In this document: positions 10,750-28,448 of the stretch, one piece after another
Numbering within the stretch: the first letter of the stretch is position 1
Layout of the letters: each line of letters starts with the position of its first letter
Origin: Terriglobia bacterium
GTDB lineage: Bacteria; Acidobacteriota; Terriglobia; 20CM-2-55-15
Reading direction: 5' to 3'
Assembly: GCA_965218585.1 (NCBI GenBank)
Contig: CBDCLE010000026.1
Span: forward strand, 288,001-352,000
DNA: 64,000 nucleotides
Translations under genes and position numbers: made by a program
The notes under the pieces: generated by a model
What the model saw: only the letters and a program-made list of their open reading frames with translations
Told to the model about the DNA's origin: nothing
Databases searched by the model: none

Positions 10750-12486
10750 CCCGCATGTTTCACCAGTCCGGCGATCAGGGGGATTTGGGCAGTAAGAATC
10801 GGATTCGGGAGGATCTGGGTTCGAATTGGGCATGTGTGGCGTGACTCGCCGGTGTCGACAAGCGGGAGTTGCTGCGTTTTCGGGTTCAGAAGAGGGTGAC
10901 GAAACGCACTGAGACAAACCTCGGCGGAGCCGAAAAGAGCGAGTCGATTTTGGCGCAGGGGATCGGGTCGGTTCTCAGCAGCGCAGAGGAAGCGCCTGCA
11001 GGTTTCGATGGACGAGGGCAAAGACCTCGGCGTAGGGATAGGCTTCCGACATGGAGATCCAGATGTTGCGAACCGTCAGACGGACTTGAGCTCCGATCTT
11101 GAGGAGCTTCAAGCGGATCGTCTGGCACTGAGCGCGGGCCAGATCGGTATTCTTCAGTCCCAGACGGCGTAACGCGTGCAGGAGCATGTAGGCGGCCGAG
11201 GACAGATAGAGCCGGAGTTGATTGGCGCGCATGGTTGCCGCGCTGGTCCGGTCGGCGAATAGATCCAACTGCTGTTCCTTGATGCGATTTTCCATGTCGC
11301 CCCGCGCACAGTAAAAGTCTTCATAGAGGGCGCGGGCGTCCAGGCGTTCCGGCGACAGTGAGGTCACAACGAATCGAGGATTGGCGCCTTTCTCCAGGAA
11401 CTCGGCCTTGCCGATGACGCGTCGGGTGCAGGTCCAGCTCTTCCGAGTGCGATACCGGAAATCGTTAAACACCCGCGCCGGTTTCCCGGTGTCGTTAAAC
11501 TCGGCTTCGGCCTGACTCATCGATTCAGCGATCTCGCGCTTGAGCCGATCGTTCTTGGCCAGACCCACCACGTAATCGACCTGGTGGGCCTCGCACCAAC
11601 TCAGCAATTCATCCCGGCAAAAGCCCGAGTCGGCCCGGATGATAATCGACACCTCCGGCCAGCTCTGCCGGATCTGGCCGATGATGCGGTTCAATTCCTC
11701 GACGGCGCCGTCCGCACCGTCGACATTGGAGCACCGCAACCGGGCGCATAGCAGATGCTCTCCCGAAAAGATGTAGAGCGGCAGATAACAGTAGTTGCCG
11801 TAGTAGCCGTGAAAGAACCGTCCTTCCTGATGGCCATGGATCGGATCATCGGTCGCATCCAGGTCCAGAACAATCTCCTCGGGCGCCGATCCGTGAGCCG
11901 CCACAAATGCATCCACCATCCAGCGGTCGATCTTGTCCGGGTCCATGGCAATCTTCTTGTACCGCTCCTTCCCATCGACTTGCTCCCCGGTCAGTTCCAA
12001 CCGGTTCAGCGTACACTTGCCCGCCAACGCTTTTCCCCGGTCTCGGGCCTGCCGCCGCTTCTCCCCCAGTGGATCGGCCTTATCCACCGCCACGGCCAGC
12101 ATCGGATCGGTCCGCAGTTGGTCATGATCGTTCAGATCCTCGTAGCCCAGACAGAGTCCGTAGACGCGCTGCCCCAATAACTCGCTCACCGTGTGTTCGA
12201 TCAACCTCGCGTCCCGGTAATCCCTGAAACACTCGGCCAGTCCGGCGATCAGACCCGTTCGCTTTTCCACTTCCCTCAACAGCAGAACCCCAGCGTCGGA
12301 GGTGATCTTTCCGCCGTCAAAACGCGCCTTCACTTTTCGTTGAAGAAGTCCGTGAAATTCGAACGTCGTTTGGTTACACTCTGTTCTCATAAGGGCCGTC
12401 TCCGTTTGGCTTGTTAAACGTTTATTTCAAAACGCTTTATGCCAGACAGGGCGGCCTTTTCTGGTCCTATTGGTGAAATATGCGGG
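10750..12486 (-). mobile_element. IS1380 family insertion sequence
   Basis: Terminal inverted repeats CCCGCATGTTTCACCA (10750-10765) and TGGTGAAATATGCGGG (12471-12486), 15/16 match; flanked by CTAG at 10746-10749 and 12487-12490. Confidence 0.93.
10975..12390 (-). CDS. IS1380 family transposase
   Basis: FDGGKITSDAG, GYEDLNDHD, LDLDATDD, RADSGF and RGDMENRIKEQQ motifs. Confidence 0.95.
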   Translation of the reverse strand: MRTECNQTTFEFHGLLQRKVKARFDGGKITSDAGVLLLREVEKRTGLIAGLAECFRDYRDARLIEHTVSELLGQRVYGLCLGYEDLNDHDQLRTDPMLAVAVDKADPLGEKRRQARDRGKALAGKCTLNRLELTGEQVDGKERYKKIAMDPDKIDRWMVDAFVAAHGSAPEEIVLDLDATDDPIHGHQEGRFFHGYYGNYCYLPLYIFSGEHLLCARLRCSNVDGADGAVEELNRIIGQIRQSWPEVSIIIRADSGFCRDELLSWCEAHQVDYVVGLAKNDRLKREIAESMSQAEAEFNDTGKPARVFNDFRYRTRKSWTCTRRVIGKAEFLEKGANPRFVVTSLSPERLDARALYEDFYCARGDMENRIKEQQLDLFADRTSAATMRANQLRLYLSSAAYMLLHALRRLGLKNTDLARAQCQTIRLKLLKIGAQVRLTVRNIWISMSEAYPYAEVFALVHRNLQALPLRC

Positions 12487-12633
12487 CTAGCAGCCTGTGT
12501 AAGACACACCACTGTCGGCCCGAGTCCCGATTGATAGATTGAGTCGTTCCCGGTTCTCCTTCGAGGGAGAGGTTTGCTGTACACTCTCGTGTCAGCGAAG
12601 ACAGCAACCACTTTAGACATCCTCTCGAATGAC

Positions 12634-13881
12634 GTGAGAACAGACGCACTCCGAGCGGTCCGTCGACGCCTGCCCCTGGTACTGGCGGGAAATACCATCA
12701 TCAGGATTGCGGGCGGCGCAGGAGGCGTTCTGATCGGGCTCTATTTTTCCGATCTGGGAAACCGGGGCCAGGACGTGAACGCAATGGTCGTCGGCCTGCT
12801 TGGCGCGGTGACATACGGCACGGAACTCATCGGGGCAGTACCGATGGGCGTCCTGACCGACCGGTTATCCCCACGATTTCTGATGATTGCAGGAGGCCTG
12901 CTTGGCGCGACCGGAATGGGCCTGCTGGGATTTGTTCGACAGGTACCGGCGTTCTTCGTTTCACGAAGCCTCGAGGGAGGGGCGTGGGCAGCCAGCGCGA
13001 CATCGATCCTGGCCTACCTGACGGACCTGACCGAGGACGCAAAACATATTCGCGGCCGGGTTATGGCCATATTCGAAGTGACCCTCCTTACGGGGATCGC
13101 GCTCGGGGGGCCGGTCGGTGCAGGCCTCTGGCAGCGGCTGGGAACGACGGCGTTCGTCACCACAGCAGGTGTGTACCTGCTGAGTTCAGCCGTATTCTGG
13201 ATTGGAGCAAGGGGGAGTGAGAAACGGAGCACGGAAGAAGCCTTCGCCGGGCTCAGACACGCCTTCAACGAACCCTCGATACGAAGGCTTGCACCGGCCT
13301 GGCTAGCGATCAACGCCATTATCGGGATCTGGATGGGGCCCATGATCACCTTTCTGCTCACCTTCCGCCAGGAAGGTAGCCAGTACCTGAACGGGCTGTT
13401 CGCCGACAACCCCGAACAGGTGGGTTGGGTATTCCTGGCCTACACGCTGGTGTTTGGTCTTGGGGTGACAATCTGGAGCTTCTTTATCGACCGCCTCGAT
13501 AGAAAAACAGTCCTTTCAGCCTGCCTAACAGCCACCCTGGTCGTCTGCGGAGCACTATACCTGGTGAATCACACACCGGACCTGGGACCCGGACCTCGCG
13601 TGGGATTACTGGCTTTCCTGGCCCTGGCCCTTATGGTCGAAAGCGGATTCACACCTGCAGCACTGGCCTTGCTGGCCGACATCGTCGGTGGAGTCACCGG
13701 TCGTGGCGCAGCGATGGGCATCTACTCGGCGCTACTTGGAATCGGAGCCTTGATCGGCGCTCTGATTGCCAGTGTTCTGGGCGCCCAGTTTGGAATTGAC
13801 GGTCTGATCCACGGGACCGTCGCCCTCGTCGTTGTCGCGCTGATAACGATTCGCAATCTCTCTGTAAGAGGTTCGTCTTGA
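12634..13881 (+). CDS. MFS transporter
   Basis: About 12 hydrophobic segments; GVLTDRLSPR motif A; start GTG 12634 chosen (ORF is open from 12574); stop overlaps the next start (TTGA). Confidence 0.85.
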   Translation: MRTDALRAVRRRLPLVLAGNTIIRIAGGAGGVLIGLYFSDLGNRGQDVNAMVVGLLGAVTYGTELIGAVPMGVLTDRLSPRFLMIAGGLLGATGMGLLGFVRQVPAFFVSRSLEGGAWAASATSILAYLTDLTEDAKHIRGRVMAIFEVTLLTGIALGGPVGAGLWQRLGTTAFVTTAGVYLLSSAVFWIGARGSEKRSTEEAFAGLRHAFNEPSIRRLAPAWLAINAIIGIWMGPMITFLLTFRQEGSQYLNGLFADNPEQVGWVFLAYTLVFGLGVTIWSFFIDRLDRKTVLSACLTATLVVCGALYLVNHTPDLGPGPRVGLLAFLALALMVESGFTPAALALLADIVGGVTGRGAAMGIYSALLGIGALIGALIASVLGAQFGIDGLIHGTVALVVVALITIRNLSVRGSS

Positions 13882-15287
13882 CAGAATCCGAGTTCGACCT
13901 GGCGATCATCGGCGCCGGATCGGGCGGAATAACCGCGGCGAACTTTGCCGCGAAACTGGGAGCACGCACCGTTCTGGTTGAAAAGGGCCGGATCGGAGGG
14001 GATTGCACTTGGACGGGTTGCGTCCCGAGCAAAGCGCTCCTCAAGGCAGCTAGGGTGGCACACGAAGCACGCATCGCCTCCCGCTATGGCATCACCGTTT
14101 CTGCACCCGCAGTCGATATGGCCAGGGTCCGTGATTATGTGACCTCAGCCATCGAAAACGTCTACCAGTACGAGACACCGGAAACATTTGAACAGTCGGG
14201 TATCGAAGTGGTCAATGCACCGGCCCGATTCGTCGACGCTCGAACGATACGTGCCGGTGACCGTATGTTGAAGGCAAAAGCTTTTCTGATCACGACCGGT
14301 GCACGGCCGATGGTACCCCCTGTCCTGGGTCTGGACGAAACTCCTTTCGTCACCTATGAACAGATATTCGACAACGCACAACTGCCTCGGACAATGACGA
14401 TCATAGGAGCGGGGCCGATCGGGGTAGAAATGGCACAGGCCTACCAGCGGTTCGGTACCCGGGTCACGCTCATCGACATTGCGCTACTGCCGAGAGAAGA
14501 GCCTGAAGCACGAAGGATCATTCTGGAAACACTCCAGGGGGAAGGCGTTCGATATCTGGAAGGGTTGGCGACGAAGGTGTACCCCGACGGCGATGAGGTT
14601 GTCATCGAGACGGCGTCTGGTCAAACTCGTTCCCAACTCCTGCTTGTGGCCACAGGGCGGGCACCCAACGTCGATGGACTCGGCCTGGAGGAAGCCGGCG
14701 TCCGTTATTCAGCCAAAGGGATTGAAGTCGATGATCGACTGCGTACCAATGTCGCTCACATATATGCCGCCGGTGACGTGACAGGAGGTTACCAGTTCAC
14801 ACATTTTGCCGCATGGCAGGCCTTCCAGGCTGTCCGCAATGCCCTGCTGCCGGGTCACAGTTCCGGCTTCACACATAACGTTCCCTGGGTGACGTATACG
14901 GATCCGGAAGTCGCGCACGTTGGGCTCGGGGAGGAGGAAGCTCGTGAAAAGTTTCCCGATGCTATCCACGTCCACCGCCATGAAATGGACCACGTTGATC
15001 GCGCCGTCTGCGAAAACGACACGCGGGGATTTCTCAAGGTCGTGACGAAACCGGACGACACGATTCTGGGGGCCACCATCGTTGCGTCCCGGGCCGGTGA
15101 AGTCATCACCGAGTTCGTCATAGCGATCGACAACAAGCTACGTCTCAGTGACCTGGCCGGCACGATCCACCCCTATCCGACCTATTCGACCCCAGTGCAA
15201 CAACTGGGGGCGGATGTTGCGGTGGAACGGGCCCTGGAGGGCGCGCGGGGAAAAGTGATCCGGGGAATCTCGAAGTTGATCCGGTAA
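13878..15287 (+). CDS. pyridine nucleotide-disulfide oxidoreductase, mercuric-reductase-like (not canonical MerA or LpdA)
   Basis: GAGSGG FAD motif, GGDCTWTGCVPSK redox centre, IYAAGD, C-terminal HPYPT; no NmerA domain, no C-terminal CC. Confidence 0.88.
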   Translation: MTESEFDLAIIGAGSGGITAANFAAKLGARTVLVEKGRIGGDCTWTGCVPSKALLKAARVAHEARIASRYGITVSAPAVDMARVRDYVTSAIENVYQYETPETFEQSGIEVVNAPARFVDARTIRAGDRMLKAKAFLITTGARPMVPPVLGLDETPFVTYEQIFDNAQLPRTMTIIGAGPIGVEMAQAYQRFGTRVTLIDIALLPREEPEARRIILETLQGEGVRYLEGLATKVYPDGDEVVIETASGQTRSQLLLVATGRAPNVDGLGLEEAGVRYSAKGIEVDDRLRTNVAHIYAAGDVTGGYQFTHFAAWQAFQAVRNALLPGHSSGFTHNVPWVTYTDPEVAHVGLGEEEAREKFPDAIHVHRHEMDHVDRAVCENDTRGFLKVVTKPDDTILGATIVASRAGEVITEFVIAIDNKLRLSDLAGTIHPYPTYSTPVQQLGADVAVERALEGARGKVIRGISKLIR

Positions 15288-15328
15288 TACGTTCGAACGG
15301 GGGATTTATGACAAACCAACTATTATTA

Positions 15329-16786
15329 CTGTGTTACAAACGAAGCGGTCCACAGAACGGACAACGAGGAAGCTGCTGAATCAGGAAGCGGGCGATGCGA
15401 ATGCGAAGCGTGGCAATCGAGCAGGGGTTATGTCGTTCGGGCCGGATCCGGGGTTCCGCGGGGTTTGAAGTGTTTGGGGAGTTTGGGGACGGATAGTCCA
15501 ACATGCTCGACAAATGCAGAGGGGGAAAAACGGCTCCGCTCGGCGACCAGGAACCCATAAGAGGCAATACATAAGGTGCCATGATGGTGAAATCCACGCC
15601 AGCCGCGACCTTCGTAGTGTCCCAGACCGAGTTCCTGCTTGAGTTCCTGATAGTCGCGTTCGATGATCCAGCGCTGTTTGGCCTGACCGGCCAGATCGGA
15701 AAGCGAGGTATGGGCCCCAAGAGTGGAGAGCCAGTACCGGATCGGTTCGGATGCGGTCTTGGGCCACTCGACCAACAACCACTCTTTCGGATGCGGCGAG
15801 TGGCGCTCGTGATCCAGATGAGCGGGACGAATGCGAACTGCGGCGAAACGGGAACGCAGGGTCTCGGAGGTGCCTTCGCGCCAGGAGACGTTCTTCCAAC
15901 GCTGGGGAGACAACGAGAGGGCCAGTTGCTTGACCGAAACCGGTTGATGTTTCTTGTTGCGCTGCATGCGGGTCGGTGTCCGTCCGCGGCCGGTCAAGGA
16001 TTTCGGCGGCAAGGGACCCTGGCCCGGTTTCCACACGGTCGTGGTGCCTTGCACCCCTAGGACGTAGCTAAGTCCGAGTTCGGTGATGCCGTGCCGGAAC
16101 TTGTAGTTGTTGCCGTAGGCCGTATCGCCCAGAACCGGTGTCGGAGCAATGCCGTCATCGACGGCCTGCCGGATTTGTTCCAAAGCAATTTGAGGTTTAG
16201 TTTGAAATCGAACGTCTTCGGGAATAGCGGCTTTGCTTCGACGTTCCGGATCCTTCGCCCAGGTCTCGGGGAGGTAGAGTCGCCATGCCACCGGCAAGCT
16301 GGATTTCGCTGTCGCCACCGACAGGCTCACCGCCACCCGGCAGTTCTCAGGTTTGCCGACCTGTCCACAGTATTGCCGGGCCACACCCACCGAGTGGGTC
16401 CCCTTTTTCACGAATCCGGTGTCGTCGACAATCCAGGCTTCAATCGGACCGTTGGCTTCCATCGCCCCCAGCGCGTACTGTCGAACTTCTGCCAACAGAG
16501 CCGCATCGTCCCAGGGCGCATCCGCGACCAGATGATGTAGCGACTGGTGCATTCGGCGTACATTATCCGGAGCCAATCGTGCAGCCATCGGCTCCACACT
16601 CTTACGTTTGATCGGCAGCAACAACCCGGTGCAGTACGACTTCAACGGTTCATGACGATCGGCGTGTCCTGCGGCCGACGCCAGGCGTTCCAAATAGGCC
16701 GCAAAACGTTTTTCCTGAGTGCCTGGCGCCTTCGATTTGGCGCTCATGACCGGATGCTAACATAAAATAGACCGTTTGTAACATAG
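15329..16786 (-). mobile_element. IS701 family insertion sequence
   Basis: Inverted ends CTGTGTTACAAACG (15329-15342) and CGTTTGTAACATAG (16773-16786); TA on both sides; reconstructed target TTAG. Confidence 0.9.
15428..16747 (-). CDS. IS701 family transposase
   Basis: RKSVEPMA, IVDDTGFVKKG.HSVGVARQYCG, GDTAYG and RWIIERDYQELKQELGL motifs. Confidence 0.95.
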   Translation of the reverse strand: MSAKSKAPGTQEKRFAAYLERLASAAGHADRHEPLKSYCTGLLLPIKRKSVEPMAARLAPDNVRRMHQSLHHLVADAPWDDAALLAEVRQYALGAMEANGPIEAWIVDDTGFVKKGTHSVGVARQYCGQVGKPENCRVAVSLSVATAKSSLPVAWRLYLPETWAKDPERRSKAAIPEDVRFQTKPQIALEQIRQAVDDGIAPTPVLGDTAYGNNYKFRHGITELGLSYVLGVQGTTTVWKPGQGPLPPKSLTGRGRTPTRMQRNKKHQPVSVKQLALSLSPQRWKNVSWREGTSETLRSRFAAVRIRPAHLDHERHSPHPKEWLLVEWPKTASEPIRYWLSTLGAHTSLSDLAGQAKQRWIIERDYQELKQELGLGHYEGRGWRGFHHHGTLCIASYGFLVAERSRFSPSAFVEHVGLSVPKLPKHFKPRGTPDPARTT

Positions 16787-16788
16787 TA

Positions 16789-18288
16789 GTACTATCCGCG
16801 CCGCAGCCACTCGAGAAGAAGGACGCTGACTACATATTGTATGAATTCACACGCAGCATCTGCCCCGAATGCCGAAAGGTCATCGACGCCCAGGTTCTCT
16901 TGCGCGACAACAAGGTCTATATGCGCAAACGCTGCCCGGATTGCGGTCCGTTCGAGGGATTGGTTTATGGCGACGCCCAGATGTATGTCTCCCAGGCCAA
17001 ATACAACAGACCCGGCACTATTCCGTTGGAGTTTGGAACGGACGTCGAGGATGGGTGTCCACATGATTGCGGGCTGTGTCCCGATCATCAGCAACACGCC
17101 TGCCTTGGAATAATAGAAGTCAACAGCGCGTGCAACATGAACTGTCCGCTCTGCTTCTCTGAGGCGGGAGCAGGTTTCAGCCTCACGCTGGAAGAAGTGG
17201 AGAACATCCTGGACGACTTCGTCCGTACCGAAGGCGATCCTGAAGTCATACAGTTTTCCGGAGGAGAACCGACGATTCACCCCCAGATCATAGAGTTCAT
17301 CGCCGCGGCCAAGGCGCGAGGAATTTCCCTGGTTATGATCAACACGAACGGAAAACGAATCGCTGATGACGATGCGTTCCTGGAACAGCTCAAAGGGGCG
17401 CAGCCTTCCATTTATTTTCAGTTCGACGGGTTCGACAGCGAAACATACAGGATCATCTGGGGAGAACCCGACATTCTCGAACAGAAACTCCGGGCGCTGG
17501 ACAGGCTGGCGGAAATAGGACTCAGCGTAACGCTTGTCCCAGCAATTGAACGAGGCGTCAACGATCACGAGCTGGGAAGAATCATCGACCTGGCAATCAA
17601 ACATCCCGCGATCTGCGGCATAAACTTTCAGCCGGCGTTTCACGCAGGCCGCCACATGGCACACGACCCGATGGAACGCATGACCATCCCCGACGTCCTC
17701 AAACTGATCGAAGAGCAGACGAAGAAACAGTTCATGGTCAGCGATTTCGTACCGGTCCCCTGCTGTTTCCCCACGTGCAACTCGGTAACTTACGGATTCA
17801 TCGACGGGGACACGGTGACGCCGATACCCCGTGTCGTCAACGTGCACGACTATCTGGACTACATCACGAATCGCGCCCTGCCGGATTGGAATCAGGACGT
17901 GACCCGGGCACTGGAGGGCCTGTGGTCTTCCTCTTCGGTTCCCGGTTCAGACAAGTCGACCCAGCAGATTGCACTCTCTTGCGAGGCTTGTGGAATTCCC
18001 GAGTCGTTTGCCGTAGGTGACATCGCGGAACACGTCATCATGATCATGCTCCAGGACTTCATGGACCCATGGACATTCAATCAGAAGAACGTGATGAAGT
18101 GCTGCAAGGAATTCCTGCTGCCGGGCAGCAAGCAGATCCCGTTCTGCGCGTACAACACAATCGGCTATCGCGAACAGGCCCGAGAGCAGCTCGAAGCCAT
18201 GGAGCCCTTGCGCCTCGAAGCCCGCAGGGATGGCTCCCGCTACGAACCTCAACCGGTCAACTTCTCGTTCAGTAACGGTGACTCATGA
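16789..18288 (+). CDS. radical SAM enzyme of the Tes/GDGT-MAS (MJ0619-like) family; native first 7 codons (15308-15328) cut off by IS701
   Basis: N-terminal CPEC...CPDC, CPHDCGLCPDH auxiliary-cluster motif, CNMNCPLC SAM motif, FSGGEPT, YFQFDG, GINFQP, FMD...KCC...IPFCAYN; the ORF track starts it at TTG 16837. Confidence 0.85.
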   Translation, partial: VLSAPQPLEKKDADYILYEFTRSICPECRKVIDAQVLLRDNKVYMRKRCPDCGPFEGLVYGDAQMYVSQAKYNRPGTIPLEFGTDVEDGCPHDCGLCPDHQQHACLGIIEVNSACNMNCPLCFSEAGAGFSLTLEEVENILDDFVRTEGDPEVIQFSGGEPTIHPQIIEFIAAAKARGISLVMINTNGKRIADDDAFLEQLKGAQPSIYFQFDGFDSETYRIIWGEPDILEQKLRALDRLAEIGLSVTLVPAIERGVNDHELGRIIDLAIKHPAICGINFQPAFHAGRHMAHDPMERMTIPDVLKLIEEQTKKQFMVSDFVPVPCCFPTCNSVTYGFIDGDTVTPIPRVVNVHDYLDYITNRALPDWNQDVTRALEGLWSSSSVPGSDKSTQQIALSCEACGIPESFAVGDIAEHVIMIMLQDFMDPWTFNQKNVMKCCKEFLLPGSKQIPFCAYNTIGYREQAREQLEAMEPLRLEARRDGSRYEPQPVNFSFSNGDS

Positions 18289-19094
18289 AGGAAACCATCG
18301 ATCTGGTAACGACAGCCGAAGAAATCAAGTCCTGCTGCGCACAGCTCTATGAACAGGATTTCGTTCGGATCCTCCTCGGTGACTCATTTCATCCCGGCGG
18401 TCTCGACCTGACGACGCAGTTGGGCCGTGCGATGGGTCTCAAACCGGAACTGAGAGTCCTGGACGTGGCTTCGGGCACGGGCACCAGCGCGCTACATATC
18501 ACGAAAACGTTCGGCTGTGAGGTGGTCGGTGTCGATTACGGGAAGGAGAACGTCCGCGTCGCGAACGAGGAAGCAGCCCGGCGTGGACTTAGCGATCGCG
18601 TCCGGTTCGAACACGGCGACTCAGAGCGTCTGCCTTTTGGAGACACCTCGTTCCACGCCATCGTGTGCGAATGTGCGTTCTGTACGTTTCCCGACAAAGC
18701 CGTGGCCGCCGGGGAGTTCTATCGCGTCCTCGGCCCGGGTGGTCGCGTAGGTCTCGGCGACATTACCCGAAGCGATACGCTTGCAGCCGAACTCCGTTCA
18801 TTGATGGCGTGGGTCGCCTGCATCGCTGACGCTCAACCGGTAGCTGGCTACCAGGAAAGACTTACGGCGGCCGGTTTCCGTATGGACTCGGTTACCCCTC
18901 ACGACGATGCGCTCACTGAAATGGTAAATCAGATTCGTGGGAAACTACTCGGACTGGAGATTGCGGTTGGCCTCAAGAAGATCGACCTGCCGGAAGTGGA
19001 CTTCACGAGCGCAAAAAACATGGCAAGGGCGGCTCTTGAAGCGATCAGTCGAGGTCAGTTGGGATACGCGCTCCTGACAGCGACCCGCCTGTAG
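18285..19094 (+). CDS. class I SAM-dependent methyltransferase, Cys-rich (ArsM-like)
   Basis: VLDVASGTG motif I; KSCCA, VCECAFC and WVACIADA; ATGA overlap with the radical SAM gene. Confidence 0.8.
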   Translation: MKETIDLVTTAEEIKSCCAQLYEQDFVRILLGDSFHPGGLDLTTQLGRAMGLKPELRVLDVASGTGTSALHITKTFGCEVVGVDYGKENVRVANEEAARRGLSDRVRFEHGDSERLPFGDTSFHAIVCECAFCTFPDKAVAAGEFYRVLGPGGRVGLGDITRSDTLAAELRSLMAWVACIADAQPVAGYQERLTAAGFRMDSVTPHDDALTEMVNQIRGKLLGLEIAVGLKKIDLPEVDFTSAKNMARAALEAISRGQLGYALLTATRL

Positions 19095-19147
19095 GTGCGG
19101 TCATGACCGCACGTTCCGCTCTGTGCGCTCATAGAGCGCACCTACAG
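19089..19147. repeat. GTAG-type REP doublet (REPIN)
   Basis: CTGTAGGTGCGGTCATGACCGCAC...GTGCGCTCATAGAGCGCACCTACAG; supplies the TAG stop of the methyltransferase. Confidence 0.85.
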
Positions 19148-19154
19148 TAAGAAT

Positions 19155-19859
19155 TCAGTCCTTCGGATTAGTCGCAAAGATCGTCAATTCTGTCGTGAAC
19201 CCGCGACCGTCCATTTCCAGGACGGCTTTTACCATGTGTGCGATGTCTTCGGCGTGAAGCTTCGTCGGGTTCTCTTTCTGATCACGGCCCGCCGTGGCCG
19301 CAAAGTTCGTAAGGACCTCGCTGGGGTTGATCAGGAACACGCGAACATTGTGAGGCCGCAATTCGGCACGCCAGCATTCAGTCATACCCCGAAGAGCAAA
19401 CTTACTCGCGTAGTAGACCGACCCGTTGGGACTGCCTTTCAACGCAGACGTCGATGCGATGTTGACGATGTTACCCTGCCCTCGCGATACGAAATGACGG
19501 GCCGCCTCGCGTCCCATCAACATTGCACCGGTTACGTTCGTCTGAAAGACGGAATCGAACTCCGCACGATCTGTATCCACCAGCGGCCTGAAGATCCCAT
19601 AGCCTGCATTGTTGACCAGTATGTCCAGGTGTCCGAAGGCCTCGAACACCTCCTGATACGTCCGCTCGACGTCTGCTTCGCTTGTGACGTCGGCCTGAAT
19701 CGGGACGGCGTTCAGAGCCTGGGCCGTCTCTTCGAGCCGCTCCGTGTTTCGCCCTGTAACGGCGACGCGTGCGCCGGCCCTTGTTAGAGATTCGGCGATG
19801 GCGCGGCCTATGCCGTTGGTTCCGCCCGTGATCAAAACACTAGCGTTCTCGAGGTTCAT
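19155..19859 (-). CDS. SDR family oxidoreductase
   Basis: TGGTNGIG, NNAG and YYASK motifs. Confidence 0.92.
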   Translation of the reverse strand: MNLENASVLITGGTNGIGRAIAESLTRAGARVAVTGRNTERLEETAQALNAVPIQADVTSEADVERTYQEVFEAFGHLDILVNNAGYGIFRPLVDTDRAEFDSVFQTNVTGAMLMGREAARHFVSRGQGNIVNIASTSALKGSPNGSVYYASKFALRGMTECWRAELRPHNVRVFLINPSEVLTNFAATAGRDQKENPTKLHAEDIAHMVKAVLEMDGRGFTTELTIFATNPKD

Positions 19860-19965: not shown

Positions 19966-21333
19966 GAGGTCGTTCCAATCGGTGTGTAAAAAGAGAAGGC
20001 GGTGTACGCTTTCGGTGAATTCGAAACCGTAAGCAATCCCGGCAGCAATCGGGAGAAAGGTACACCACCCATGAAGAAGAAGAAGAACATACCGGCATCA
20101 GTGGCGTCAACGAACGCGTATGAAGGTTTGGAGGACTGGGCGCGATCCCGGGTCCAAGTCTGGCTACAGGAGCTGCTTGAGGACGAAGTCACTCAATTTC
20201 TGGGTCGGGAAAAGTCGGAGCGGAGTCCGAATCGACGAGGATACCGGAACGGTCACGGGAAGCCGCGACGCTTCGCAATGATGAACGGCACGATGGAGGT
20301 TCGACGACCTCGGGTTCGAAACACCGCCGAGCGGTTCGAGAGTCAGATCCTGCCGTATTTTCGACGGAAATCGAAACAGCTGGGCGAGCTACTTCCCGAT
20401 CTCTACCTCCACGGCCTGGCCACAGGGGACTTCGAGCAGGCCATGCGCGGACTGCTTGGCGCTGGCGCTCCGTTGTCGCGAGCATCGATCCAACGACTGA
20501 AATCGACCTGGCAGTTGGAGTATGACGAGTGGGTCCAGCAGGACCTGTCCGGCCTCGAGGTCGTGTACCAGTGGGCAGACGGCTTGTACGTGAAAGCGGG
20601 GATCGCGAAAGAGCGAGTGGCATTGCTGGTGATCATCGGAGCCTTGTCAGACGGGCGCAAAGTGCTGTTGGCCTGTGAGAGCGGGCAGCGGGAAAGCAAG
20701 GAGTCCTGGAGCCGCATTCTGCGCAATCTCCAGAGACGGGGCCTGAAGCTGGGACGGCTGACTGTCGCGGACGGTCACCTGGGCATCTGGTCCGCGCTGG
20801 CCGAGCAACAGCCCCAGGGCCAGGAACAACGCTGCTGGAACCACAAGTCGATCAACGTGGTCGATCATCTGCCGAAGACCGAGCAGCCCGCGGCCAGACA
20901 GCTGCTTCATGGGATGGCCTTCGCGAACTCCCGCGCGGCCTGCGAACGAAAGCGGGATCAGTTCGTCCGCCGATATGAGAAGAACTATCCCAAAGCGGGT
21001 GAGACGCTGTTGCGGGACTGGGACCGGATGATTACTTTCTATGAGTTCCCGAAACAACACTGGGTGCATCTGAGAACAACCAACATCGTCGAATCGCCCT
21101 TCGACATGGTTCGCCTCCGCACCAACGCCGCTCGCCGATTCAAGCGTGTCGAGAATGCAACGGCAATGATTTGGAAGCTACTACGTGTCGCTGAGAAGGC
21201 TTGGCGACACTTAAAAGGATCCGAACTCTTACAAGAGGTCTATGATGGTCAGCAATTCGCTGACGGCATCAGAGTCGTGATGAAATCGAAGGCCGCCGCC
21301 TGATGACTTTTACACACCTTTTGTAATGACCTC
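19966..21333 (+). mobile_element. IS256 family insertion sequence
   Basis: Imperfect inverted repeats GAGGTCGTTCCAATCGGTGTGTAAAA and TTTTACACACCTTTTGTAATGACCTC; 9-bp direct repeat GGATGTGAC at 19957-19965 and 21334-21342. Confidence 0.93.
20071..21303 (+). CDS. IS256 family transposase
   Basis: GYRNGH, LYLHGLATGDF, WADG, ADGHLG, QRCWNHK and LRTTNIVESPF motifs. Confidence 0.93.
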   Translation: MKKKKNIPASVASTNAYEGLEDWARSRVQVWLQELLEDEVTQFLGREKSERSPNRRGYRNGHGKPRRFAMMNGTMEVRRPRVRNTAERFESQILPYFRRKSKQLGELLPDLYLHGLATGDFEQAMRGLLGAGAPLSRASIQRLKSTWQLEYDEWVQQDLSGLEVVYQWADGLYVKAGIAKERVALLVIIGALSDGRKVLLACESGQRESKESWSRILRNLQRRGLKLGRLTVADGHLGIWSALAEQQPQGQEQRCWNHKSINVVDHLPKTEQPAARQLLHGMAFANSRAACERKRDQFVRRYEKNYPKAGETLLRDWDRMITFYEFPKQHWVHLRTTNIVESPFDMVRLRTNAARRFKRVENATAMIWKLLRVAEKAWRHLKGSELLQEVYDGQQFADGIRVVMKSKAAA

Positions 21334-27032: not shown

Positions 27033-28448
27033 CTAGAGTGTGGGGTGGCTCTGGCTCCACGGTGTCGCACGTTCGTAGACCGCCCCGATCTGCAGTATTC
27101 GGGCTTCTGTCCAGGCGCGGCCGGCAATCTGGAGACCAATGGGCAGTCCCTCCGAGCTAAATCCGCAGGGCACAGAAACTGCAGGCGAACCTGTGAGGGA
27201 AAAAGGGGCGGTCAAACCGGCCAACAGCTCGAACTCATTGATGGACTTGCCATCGACGGTCGCGAACGGCTCGCCGATCGGGAAGGCAACAGCGCGGTTG
27301 GTCGGGGTGACCAGCGCGTCTAGATCGCTCATGATCCCATCGAGCTCCTGCCGCATGGCTGTCCGCAGCCGCTGCGCCCGGATGTAGTCGGTCGCAAGCA
27401 TCATTTCTCCGGGTTCAACTTTCCCCCGGACGTCCCCGTAGTCGTCGGCCCGCTTGCGGAGAAAGTCTGATTGAAAAGAAGCCGCTTCTGGCCTGCTCAG
27501 AAACGGGAAAATAGTTGTGGCTTGCGAGGCGCTCGGGAATCGAACCTCTCGAACAGTGGCGCCAAGGTCTCGAAACACGTCGATGGCCGCTTCGACGGCG
27601 GCCCGCACTTCCGGATCCAGGGGCTCGAACAAATACCCACGAGGCAACCCTATCCGAACTCCCCTCAAGTCGGTCTTCAATTCACGAGTGAAGTCGGGGA
27701 CTTCGACGTTTGTCGAACCCGAGTCCTTCGGGTCGTAGCCTGAAATCGAATTCAGGACGAGAGCGGTATCTTCTACCTCGCGCGTGATGGGACCTGCATG
27801 GTCGAGGCTCCAGGACAAGGGAACGGTTCCATACACGCTGACCCGCCCGAAGGTTGGCTTCAGACCCACCAGGCCACACAGGGATGCCGGATAACGGATC
27901 GATGCGATGGTGTCTGTTCCCAACGCTGCGTAACAGAAACCCGCTGAGACGGCTGCGGCTGACCCACCGCTCGACCCGCCCGGAATGCGGTCCAGTTTCC
28001 ATGGATTGTGCGTCGCGCCGTAGTGAGGATTCGTCGTCGTCCCCCCGAGCGCGAGCTCATGCATGTTGAGCTTGCCTGTGATGACGGCACCGGCAGCGCG
28101 AAGCCGCGAGACTGCGGTGCCGTCTTCGGCCGGAACAAAATCGGCCAGAAGCCTGGACCCGGCTGTCGTTGGGATCCCCTCGGTCCAGTAATTGTCTTTG
28201 AGCCCGATCGGAACTCCGTGCAGGGGGCCGCGGTACTTACCGGCAGAGATCTCGCTCTCTGCGCGGCGGGCGTCGTCCATCGCCCTGTCGAAGGTGGTAG
28301 TGATGTAGGCGTTTACCCGCGGCTCAACGGCATTGGTCCGCTCGATCGCGGCATTCAACACTTCGACAGGAGATAGTTCCCGCCGTGCGATACGTTCGGA
28401 TACCTGCTTGAGAGAGAGGTAGAAGACGTTCCCACCGCCGGGACTCAT
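27033..28448 (-). CDS. amidase signature family protein (GatA/AtzE-like)
   Basis: GLKD, GGSSGGSAAAV and GTDTIASIRYPA motifs. Confidence 0.9.
   Translation of the reverse strand: MSPGGGNVFYLSLKQVSERIARRELSPVEVLNAAIERTNAVEPRVNAYITTTFDRAMDDARRAESEISAGKYRGPLHGVPIGLKDNYWTEGIPTTAGSRLLADFVPAEDGTAVSRLRAAGAVITGKLNMHELALGGTTTNPHYGATHNPWKLDRIPGGSSGGSAAAVSAGFCYAALGTDTIASIRYPASLCGLVGLKPTFGRVSVYGTVPLSWSLDHAGPITREVEDTALVLNSISGYDPKDSGSTNVEVPDFTRELKTDLRGVRIGLPRGYLFEPLDPEVRAAVEAAIDVFRDLGATVREVRFPSASQATTIFPFLSRPEAASFQSDFLRKRADDYGDVRGKVEPGEMMLATDYIRAQRLRTAMRQELDGIMSDLDALVTPTNRAVAFPIGEPFATVDGKSINEFELLAGLTAPFSLTGSPAVSVPCGFSSEGLPIGLQIAGRAWTEARILQIGAVYERATPWSQSHPTL

Follow-up and report, generated by a model that had tools for sequence, protein, structure and literature searches.

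The question raised by this locus is whether four co-oriented genes that lie close together in an acidobacterial genome form a unit and, if so, what kind of chemistry they might perform. The genes are found in a 64,000-nucleotide stretch of contig CBDCLE010000026.1 (GenBank assembly GCA_965218585.1, Terriglobia bacterium), which we call the window, and they code for a major facilitator superfamily (MFS) transporter, a class I FAD/NAD(P)H pyridine-nucleotide disulfide oxidoreductase (hereafter, the reductase), an enzyme of the radical S-adenosylmethionine (SAM) type and a cysteine-rich class I SAM methyltransferase. Comparison with related loci led us to conclude that the four genes are a conserved accessory cassette with a patchy occurrence across several phyla.

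All four genes are located on the plus strand. The MFS gene (12574-13881; MFS_1, 129.5 bits) starts with TTG at 12574, the GTG at 12634 being an alternative start codon, and its stop overlaps the TTG start (13878) of the reductase gene (13878-15287; Pyr_redox_2 and dimerisation domain) in the sequence TTGA at 13878-13881. The reductase gene ends with TAA at 15285-15287, and exactly 20 nt further the ATG of the radical SAM gene is found at 15308, with a GGGGA ribosome-binding site 5' of it. An insertion sequence (IS), described below, separates the first five codons of this gene (MTNQL, 15308-15322) from its body (codon 6 to stop, 16795-18288; Radical_SAM and Zn_ribbon_HMPTM). The methyltransferase gene (18285-19094) begins with the ATG at 18285, which overlaps the radical SAM stop in ATGA at 18285-18288, and its product carries the motifs KSCC, (H)PGG, CECAFCTF and WVACIADA. 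An initial annotation of the window had described this four-gene layout, both overlaps and the native ATG 20 nt past the reductase stop, and all of them were confirmed by the open reading frame (ORF) coordinates.

In order to determine the conservation of this arrangement, we analyzed 80 loci, the best of 309 relatives found in a one-genome-per-species scan, with radical SAM proteins of 72-86% identity. Neighbour clusters present in at least three of the 80 loci were annotated from one representative per cluster, except for three that were left unscanned. In all of the 75 loci with at least 900 bp of downstream sequence, the radical SAM gene is directly followed on its own strand by the methyltransferase gene, and the gap between the two genes ranges from -3 to 212 nt (median 76). 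Where 7 kb or more of sequence is available on each side (42 loci), the reductase gene is present in 34, the MFS gene in 33 and both in 32; these genes are co-oriented upstream in 18 loci, divergent in 15 and downstream in 2, and the remaining 7 have neither. In five of these 7, a gene of the VKOR-like kind is located immediately upstream of the one for the radical SAM enzyme. Additionally, in 35 genomes of the window's order the radical SAM gene, the methyltransferase gene and a reductase orthologue of at least 59% identity are found in the identical eight genomes. Conservation of the neighbourhood in other genomes had been set as a check by the initial annotation, and the cassette passed it strongly.

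The carriers include several classes of Acidobacteriota, Eremiobacterota-type metagenome-assembled genomes (MAGs), Rhodanobacteraceae, Steroidobacteraceae and Alphaproteobacteria, the gamma- and alphaproteobacterial proteins being within the 72-86% identity range. When 301 evenly drawn Acidobacteriota genomes were searched, a Tes-like match of some kind was observed in 177, and full-length radical SAM orthologues (68-100% identity) in three (G000, G188 and G307), with a fragment in a fourth (G139). Three of the sampled genomes entered the orthologue count as negatives only, two with one weak match each of the long-paralogue type described below (G053, G077) and one with a single weak match (G180). 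This patchy occurrence indicates that the cassette is accessory, and it fits horizontal spread.

A distant copy was found on a plasmid of the cultured Mycolicibacterium vanbaalenii JOB5 (NZ_CP126902.1; L219, 120227-139648), where the radical SAM protein is 53% identical to that of the window. Its methyltransferase gene overlaps the radical SAM gene, and the product is 44% identical and keeps KSCC, ECSFCTF and WVACIADA. As the adjacency is kept both in the 75 loci and on this plasmid, the radical SAM and methyltransferase genes are considered the constant core pair. The JOB5 pair is accompanied by genes for CcdA, a protein disulfide oxidoreductase, a glutaredoxin-domain protein, a deiodinase-like protein, a CMD-family protein and a non-orthologous MFS protein; a second radical SAM gene, a PhnD/SsuA-type binding protein and an acyl-CoA dehydrogenase are further neighbours on the plasmid.

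Apart from the four cassette genes, no neighbour family occurs in more than 13 of the 80 loci. The thiol-redox families are VKOR-like (9 loci), GRDB-like (6), AhpC-type (two clusters, 5 and 3), CMD (5) and DoxX (3). A PiT/PHO4-like transporter is found in 13 loci at three different positions, and SulP in 3; the PiT-like protein matches the CysP sulfate permease (74 bits) and PitA (70 bits) equally weakly. An ECF sigma factor (13 loci), HAD (6), DUF2063/MbnB (5 and 4) and fatty acid hydroxylase (3) complete the picture. Thus, a thiol:disulfide partner and a transporter recur around the core pair in non-orthologous forms, and the thiol:disulfide partner is interchangeable: it is mostly the FAD disulfide reductase together with the MFS protein, elsewhere a VKOR-like protein, and in JOB5 CcdA plus a disulfide oxidoreductase.

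The radical SAM protein has an N-terminal zinc ribbon of the HMPTM type (C23, C26, C47, C50), an auxiliary-cluster motif (C88, C92, C95, C103), the radical SAM cluster motif C113-x3-C117-x2-C120 and three groups of C-terminal cysteines (C323/C324/C328, C396/C399 and C436/C437/C451). Its best solved relative is the archaeal tetraether synthase GDGT-MAS (7tol, 272.8 bits). The Tes model NF045702 scored 329.5 bits against a cut-off of 450, residues 19-327 being aligned with model positions 2-315 of 486, and the TrsS model NF045646, which spans the whole protein (model positions 3-431 of 441), scored 311.9 bits where 490 is the cut-off, so that the protein falls below both families. A search among 1.84 billion representatives returned 696 relatives at E values up to 1e-30. 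Of 150 representatives, the 64 with lengths outside 420-570 aa were not used for the phylogenetic analysis, and a FastTree phylogeny with local support values only was built from 92 rows: 86 full-length representatives, the window protein, its paralogue and four family members. The family of the window protein lies in a half of 56 rows; ten of the 86 representatives were scanned against NCBIfam, and none of the six scanned in this half reaches the Tes or the TrsS cut-off. The other half contains the TrsS clade (P0230, 569.9 bits; P0204, 545.3 bits) and the Tes clade (P0256, 592.6 bits). Judging from scores and tree, we assign the window protein to an unnamed third branch beside Tes and TrsS, with an N-terminal half of the GDGT-MAS type. 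The "Tes/GDGT-MAS-like" label given previously is therefore right as to homology with GDGT-MAS, but the protein misses the Tes cut-off and lies outside the Tes clade.

Position C323 deserves separate mention, as no variation is seen at this residue among 54 aligned sequences with identities as low as 38%. It belongs to the sequence PVPC and aligns with an in-frame TGA (PPGU) in one TrsS sequence of 75 long hits, most of the others having Cys at this position. The TGA occurs in a metagenome TrsS locus (L143:6001-7503) in the context PPG*ENALCSF and is probably the selenocysteine site of TrsS. Candidate selenocysteines in sister homologues were rejected, the flagged TGA codons having fallen outside the coding body.

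The best NCBIfam match of the methyltransferase is DVU_1556 (NF045667), with 124 bits against a cut-off of 155; one encoded in a TrsS locus reaches 212.3 bits with this model. The second is ArsM (NF008823), with 95.2 bits against a cut-off of 263 and only model positions 74-238 covered. The protein is placed as a sister of the DVU_1556 family that is found beside TrsS. Its KSCC, CECAFC and WVACI motifs, pointed out in the initial annotation, are indeed present, and every one of their seven cysteines (positions 17, 18, 78, 128, 130, 133 and 179) is retained by 97-99% of the 70 orthologues in the alignment. An alignment with six ArsM proteins from related genomes, all above the ArsM cut-off, placed C130 opposite the Cys of ArsM SNCV and C179 opposite that of GC(I/V)AGA, and WVACIADA resembles W(A/V)GC(I/V)AGA of ArsM. 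The segment with the LGCGNP Cys of ArsM is deleted in the window protein, and the N-terminal CC pair is out of register with ArsM. In an AlphaFold model (pLDDT 91.5) the nearest folds are AtmM, TleD, MitM, RebM and phosphoethanolamine methyltransferases, with no ArsM among the listed matches; the ESM Atlas gave generic methyltransferase cluster names only. The description of this protein as ArsM-like holds for the two aligned cysteines, but not for the family score, the LGCGNP loop or the fold.

During this analysis, ArsM-model matches with one in-frame TGA were observed in four genomes of relatives (G002:C41:582375-583034, G004:C21:936000-936674, G018:C43:30870-31535 and G013:C7:1189267-1190022); three of them score below the ArsM cut-off and the last one above it (313.2 bits). 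These proteins may be selenoprotein variants.

In the reductase, C43-x4-C48 is the redox-active pair, an H.YPT motif is conserved, and C378 is the one remaining cysteine. It falls below the cut-offs of two models, with 362.6 bits against 454.45 for MerA (TIGR02053) and 444.6 against 620 for NF004991. The best solved relatives are MerA cores (241.8 bits), barely above lipoamide dehydrogenase (232.1 bits). A C-terminal Cys pair and a metal-binding N-terminal domain are hallmarks of MerA, and both are absent since the protein has only three cysteines; the conserved His of H.YPT is kept also by glutathione and lipoamide reductases. The earlier term "MerA-like" thus describes the best solved match of this protein and goes no further, the score being below the MerA cut-off and the C-terminal cysteines missing. 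In a genome of the same genus (G004:C21:682879-684281) the reductase orthologue is in two pieces (residues 2-288 and 288-469), which suggests a frameshift or decay of the cassette reductase.

The copy in the window is interrupted by an IS701-family element of about 1.47 kb (about 15321-16794, minus strand), inserted in the radical SAM gene behind its fifth codon. The initial annotation had merely hinted at this interruption, with its words "native ATG" and "repaired operon". The transposase ORF (15428-16747, minus strand) scores 433.9 bits against NF033540 (cut-off 150), the imperfect terminal inverted repeats of 22 nt (15321-15342 and 16773-16794) are 86% identical, and the element is bordered by a CTA repeat, ACTA in the window copy; exact anchors for the comparison of the flanks came from 3 of 8 loci. 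The source genome (4.55 Mb) contains 37 matches to the element. Transposase score, inverted repeats, a short direct repeat and multiple copies, by which the family is recognised, are thus all found. The radical SAM frame stays open across the junction (...CAA CTA / TCC GCG...), and orthologues from the same genus are unbroken ORFs of 518-600 aa. As 23 of the 37 matches are full length or almost so, with 99-100% identity, next to fragments, the insertion is recent, and the copies amount to a recent burst of transposition in the source genome. The left ends vary slightly among the copies (TATTATTAC, TACTACTAC and TAGTACTAC).

Since the element stands between the radical SAM gene body on one side and the start codon and any transcription from upstream on the other, the cassette of the window is probably disabled or decoupled in the source genome. 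The TTG at 16837, with AAGGA upstream, is a candidate internal start of the truncated gene. A promoter and terminator scan of 12300-19300 gave counts no higher than chance. The Rfam scan detected no riboswitch or other RNA family in the window, and in seven cassette loci only a tRNA and a group II intron fragment; the latter (L036:12941-13079, D1-D4) is situated downstream of the cassette and scores 52 bits, the cut-off being 49.

Two other transposase genes flank the cassette, IS1380 at 10975-12390 and IS256 at 20002-21303. The former (397.9 bits) and a second ORF at 27033-28448 are both on the minus strand and both 471 aa long, and the second may be another IS1380 copy. In the closest relative (L006), an outer-membrane protein gene directly abuts the reductase gene, with no IS and no MFS gene between them.

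The reading that we consider best is that the cassette performs a radical C-H activation, followed by capture of the radical by a sulfur-type atom held on cysteines and then by methylation; we regard it as plausible, though somewhat short of probable. According to this reading, the radical SAM enzyme would abstract a hydrogen from an unactivated aliphatic carbon, a lipid tail being the favoured substrate, and the carbon radical would be captured by a soft heteroatom, most likely sulfur, in place of C-C coupling. The heteroatom could be held on a cluster or on cysteines, C323 and the methyltransferase pair C130/C179 being the candidates. The methyltransferase would then add a SAM-derived methyl group, and the reductase (or VKOR or CcdA) would reset the cysteines or disulfide at each turnover, or else keep a thiol product reduced, the MFS protein moving product or substrate. 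Sulfur is favoured because the neighbours are thiol-redox proteins and anion transporters. GDGT-MAS reportedly passes through a carbon-sulfur bond to its auxiliary cluster, which would make a thiolating relative chemically natural. The initial annotation had mentioned a selenium- or sulfur-lipid version in parentheses, and this version fits the thiol-redox neighbours better than the arsenic version that it put first. Doubtful, and clearly less secure than the general scheme, is the wider claim that a Tes-fold enzyme, instead of joining two carbons, works with a Cys-rich methyltransferase and a dedicated disulfide reductase to place a methylated soft heteroatom (S, Se or As) on a lipid carbon that is not activated, the four genes forming a mobile cassette of soil bacteria.

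It is important to mention the observations that weigh against radical capture by sulfur followed by methylation. The heteroatom and the substrate are both predicted from genes and sequences. The nearest folds of the methyltransferase are O-, N- and C-methyltransferases of natural products and the phosphoethanolamine type, with no pointer to S-methylation. The selenocysteine alignment at C323 consists of one TGA sequence among 75, in which a sequencing error is possible. Reductase and MFS genes are both missing from 7 of the 42 well-flanked loci, and the reductase found in TrsS loci belongs to another family than the class I enzyme of the cassette. Moreover, methyltransferase, reductase and MFS genes are all absent from eight loci of a sister subfamily (about 35% identity), so that the pairing is not common to the whole third branch.

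This sister subfamily (27-37% identity) is instructive with regard to the substrate. A gene of the Lgt family (prolipoprotein diacylglyceryl transferase-like) was found nearby in six of eight acidobacterial loci (among L211-L217), and the same pairing was observed on plasmids of Chondrinema litorale and Mycobacterium avium (L220:5253-7374; L221:4201-7521). This is a second conserved pairing, and it hints that the third branch still acts on glycerolipids. The fatty acid hydroxylase gene present in three of the cassette loci is another hint of a lipid substrate.

A lipid substrate could also mean that the radical SAM enzyme is a synthase of membrane-spanning lipids, the alternative already named in the initial annotation. 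A Tes-like coupling of two iso-C15 tails would then give iso-diabolic acid or brGDGTs (the branched glycerol dialkyl glycerol tetraethers), with the methyltransferase and the reductase adding the C5/C6 methyls. The homology to GDGT-MAS (272.8 bits, some 310 N-terminal residues well aligned) is in line with this, as is the fact that most carriers are Acidobacteriota. That bacterial Tes homologues make brGDGTs is a hypothesis put forward in the literature (PMC8941075, PMC10087280), and the choice of Solibacter usitatus as a producer was made through a search for Tes homologues (bioRxiv 10.1101/2022.04.07.487437). Additionally, five of five cassette-bearing Bryobacterales MAGs hold only two Tes-like kinds, the cassette enzyme and the long one (one of them, G355, also has a 275-aa fragment), and a fatty acid hydroxylase gene lies near the cassette in three loci. 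However, orthologues were found in only 3 of the 301 genomes of the phylum (plus the one fragment) and in 8 of 35 of the order, whereas iso-diabolic acid is reported from almost all strains of subdivisions 1, 3, 4 and 6 (PMC13159169), and a patchy cassette does not fit a general role in making a near-universal lipid. The carriers extend to Proteobacteria, Eremiobacterota-type MAGs and a Mycolicibacterium plasmid, the C-terminal half of the radical SAM protein is unmatched by the Tes model, and the seven conserved methyltransferase cysteines, the disulfide reductase and the MFS protein have no role in this model.

A further point against it is that the same genome codes for a second Tes-like protein (G000:C24:143059-143919; L087:568-2790, minus strand). 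The Tes model aligns with this 740-aa ORF from end to end (320.9 bits), and the protein pairs with the Tes-scoring P0256 with a support of 99. Long ORFs of about 630-890 aa, with matching residues of about 30-316, are also the commonest Tes-like kind among the listed rows of the 301 Acidobacteriota genomes, and this long type is a better candidate than the cassette enzyme for the acidobacterial membrane-spanning lipid enzyme. Patchy distribution and the more Tes-like paralogue in the same genome thus weaken the alternative: a synthase of this kind is improbable for the cassette, and it is unlikely that the cassette radical SAM serves as a general acidobacterial membrane-spanning lipid synthase.

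An explanation that we find no more probable, and again unlikely, is a maturation function of the TrsS type in which no lipid takes part: the pair would modify a cofactor, a small metabolite or a protein-bound group, which in TrsS loci would serve a neighbouring molybdenum aldehyde oxidoreductase, and the reductase would supply electrons. In its favour, the TrsS model covers the radical SAM protein over its full length, DVU_1556 is the best family of the methyltransferase (although at 124 bits against 155), and TrsS loci hold a homologous methyltransferase and a disulfide oxidoreductase, with a molybdopterin aldehyde oxidoreductase cluster in 24 of 80. On the other hand, the CoA ligase, DVU_1555, DVU_1557 and the molybdenum enzyme of those loci are absent among the conserved neighbours of the 80 cassette loci, and the presence of an MFS protein and of thiol oxidoreductases of the membrane (VKOR, CcdA) suggests that the product is transported or bound up with the membrane.

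The preferred reading of the initial annotation was an arsenolipid or organoarsenical cassette, in which a methyl-As(III) species, made by the methyltransferase and held on its cysteines, would be joined by the radical SAM enzyme to a lipid-terminus radical, with the reductase keeping arsenic or thiols reduced and the MFS protein acting in export. The conserved neighbourhood, the alignment of C130 and C179 with two conserved ArsM cysteines and the place of the ArsM subfamily as second-best NCBIfam match of the methyltransferase speak for it, and so does a precedent: pairs of radical SAM enzyme and ArsM, as in ArsS/ArsM and arsQML, are described as making C-As compounds, and arsQML includes a permease (PMC8552651, PMC12159101). 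In 13 of the 80 loci the gene for an anion transporter of the PiT type is found next to the cassette, but this protein is equally weak as CysP and as PitA. The methyltransferase, in turn, matches ArsM in the core only (95.2 against 263 bits), with the LGCGNP loop deleted and nearest folds other than ArsM.

The genomic context gave no support specific to arsenic. The initial annotation had asked whether the subclade travels with ars genes, and no ars family was found among the annotated neighbour clusters of the 80 loci (those in at least three loci, three being unscanned). Carrier genomes, examined for 50 of the 80 loci, have a canonical ArsM in 31 of 50 cases, against 21 of 31 among non-selected relatives, so that ArsM is neither enriched nor complementary. 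An apparent complementarity within one family, with 7 cassette-only against 11 ArsM-only genomes, was rejected when it failed in five more genomes, of which one has both (G333), three have neither (G340, G341 and G332) and one has ArsM only (G342). The analogy with the arsenic systems is all that supports this reading, which we consider very improbable. Finally, that four unrelated genes were merely gathered in an IS-rich region, as the three different IS transposases around the window copy (IS1380, IS701 and IS256) might suggest, can be dismissed almost completely, as the methyltransferase adjoins in 75 of 75 loci, three genes have identical presence and absence in 35 genomes and the linkage survives three rearranged layouts and several phyla.

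The distinction between these enzymes has practical consequences, because "bacterial Tes homologues" are relied on when brGDGT producers are predicted and when palaeoclimate proxies are read (PMC8941075; bioRxiv 10.1101/2022.04.07.487437). The Tes homologues observed here are of at least three kinds, namely the long Tes-like kind, the Lgt-paired kind and the kind paired with a methyltransferase and thiol-redox proteins, and pooled counts would mislead. If radical capture by a heteroatom is what the cassette performs, the chemistry of GDGT-MAS would extend from C-C to C-S, C-Se or C-As bonds, and the cassette would be the first enzyme route to heteroatom-terminated lipids (methylthio-, seleno- or arseno-lipids), for which it could supply the missing enzymes. 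The chemistry is directly testable, since the cassette is compact, its radical SAM protein is 72-86% identical across phyla and a copy is carried on the plasmid of a cultured Mycolicibacterium. Moreover, the cassette is an aerobic, selenocysteine-free counterpart for the study of the TrsS system.

Compared with the known arsenic systems, the cassette has the same small self-contained architecture as the arsinothricin cluster arsQML, which consists of a transporter, ArsM and a radical SAM enzyme (PMC8552651). Unlike arsQML and the arsenosugar pair ArsS/ArsM, its radical SAM protein is of the Tes/TrsS type by best matches (Tes, TrsS and GDGT-MAS); neither an ArsL nor an ArsS model is seen among the 25 NCBIfam matches listed for it, and no comparison aimed directly at these two enzymes was made. 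The cassette also differs from the arsenic systems compared in that it is not inside an ars operon. A literature search found no description of the cassette; most subscription journals were out of its reach, and absence from print is not claimed.

With Tes and GDGT-MAS (7tol) the cassette enzyme shares the zinc ribbon and the auxiliary-cluster and radical SAM motifs, about 310 N-terminal residues being aligned (222.6 bits), and a C-terminal CC...PFC.YN motif is common to GDGT-MAS and the cassette enzyme. Tes-scoring proteins, unlike the cassette enzyme, have a 20-residue insert and no Cys at the C323 position, and the cassette radical SAM gene, unlike that of Tes, has a conserved context of methyltransferase, reductase and MFS genes. 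The cassette reductase, like MerA and other class I reductases, has the FAD/NAD fold, the C-x4-C motif and the dimerisation domain.

A parallel in gene content is offered by TrsS, whose neighbourhood together with DVU_1553-DVU_1557 (NCBIfam NF045646, NF045667 and others) is credited in PMC13188914 to Haft and Tolstoy 2025. For comparison, 80 metagenome loci were retrieved by alignment of the TrsS clade, and one representative per gene cluster was scanned with NCBIfam. In 43 of these loci the radical SAM gene has a homologue of the window's methyltransferase no more than about 1 kb away. The clusters found are the DVU_1553 CoA ligase (45 loci), the DVU_1556 methyltransferase (43), a pyridine-nucleotide disulfide oxidoreductase/dicluster protein (37), DVU_1555 (36), a molybdopterin aldehyde oxidoreductase (24) and DVU_1557 (10). 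Of these, the CoA ligase, DVU_1555 (a C-GCAxxG-C-C protein), DVU_1557 and the molybdenum enzyme have no counterpart among the conserved neighbours of the 80 cassette loci. In 32 methyltransferases linked to TrsS, C130 is conserved in 97%, C179 in 59% and C128 in 31%, and C17, C18, C78 and C133 are absent or nearly so; TrsS-linked and cassette methyltransferases have in common (H/R)PGG, E129-C130, C179 (in the 59%) and G260-Y261. The TrsS model spans the whole of the cassette radical SAM protein, and the Cys/Sec position C323 is common to both. The methyltransferase gene lies directly downstream of the radical SAM gene in the cassette and upstream of it in TrsS loci, the cassette reductase is of the class I type and paired with an MFS protein, and the cassette carrier records name soil and peat lineages. 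As judged from the family assignments, the theme of a radical SAM enzyme with a methyltransferase and an NAD(P)-disulfide oxidoreductase is one that the cassette shares with a TrsS neighbourhood already encoded in NCBIfam; since the reductases of the two belong to different families, the parallel is one of analogy rather than orthology.

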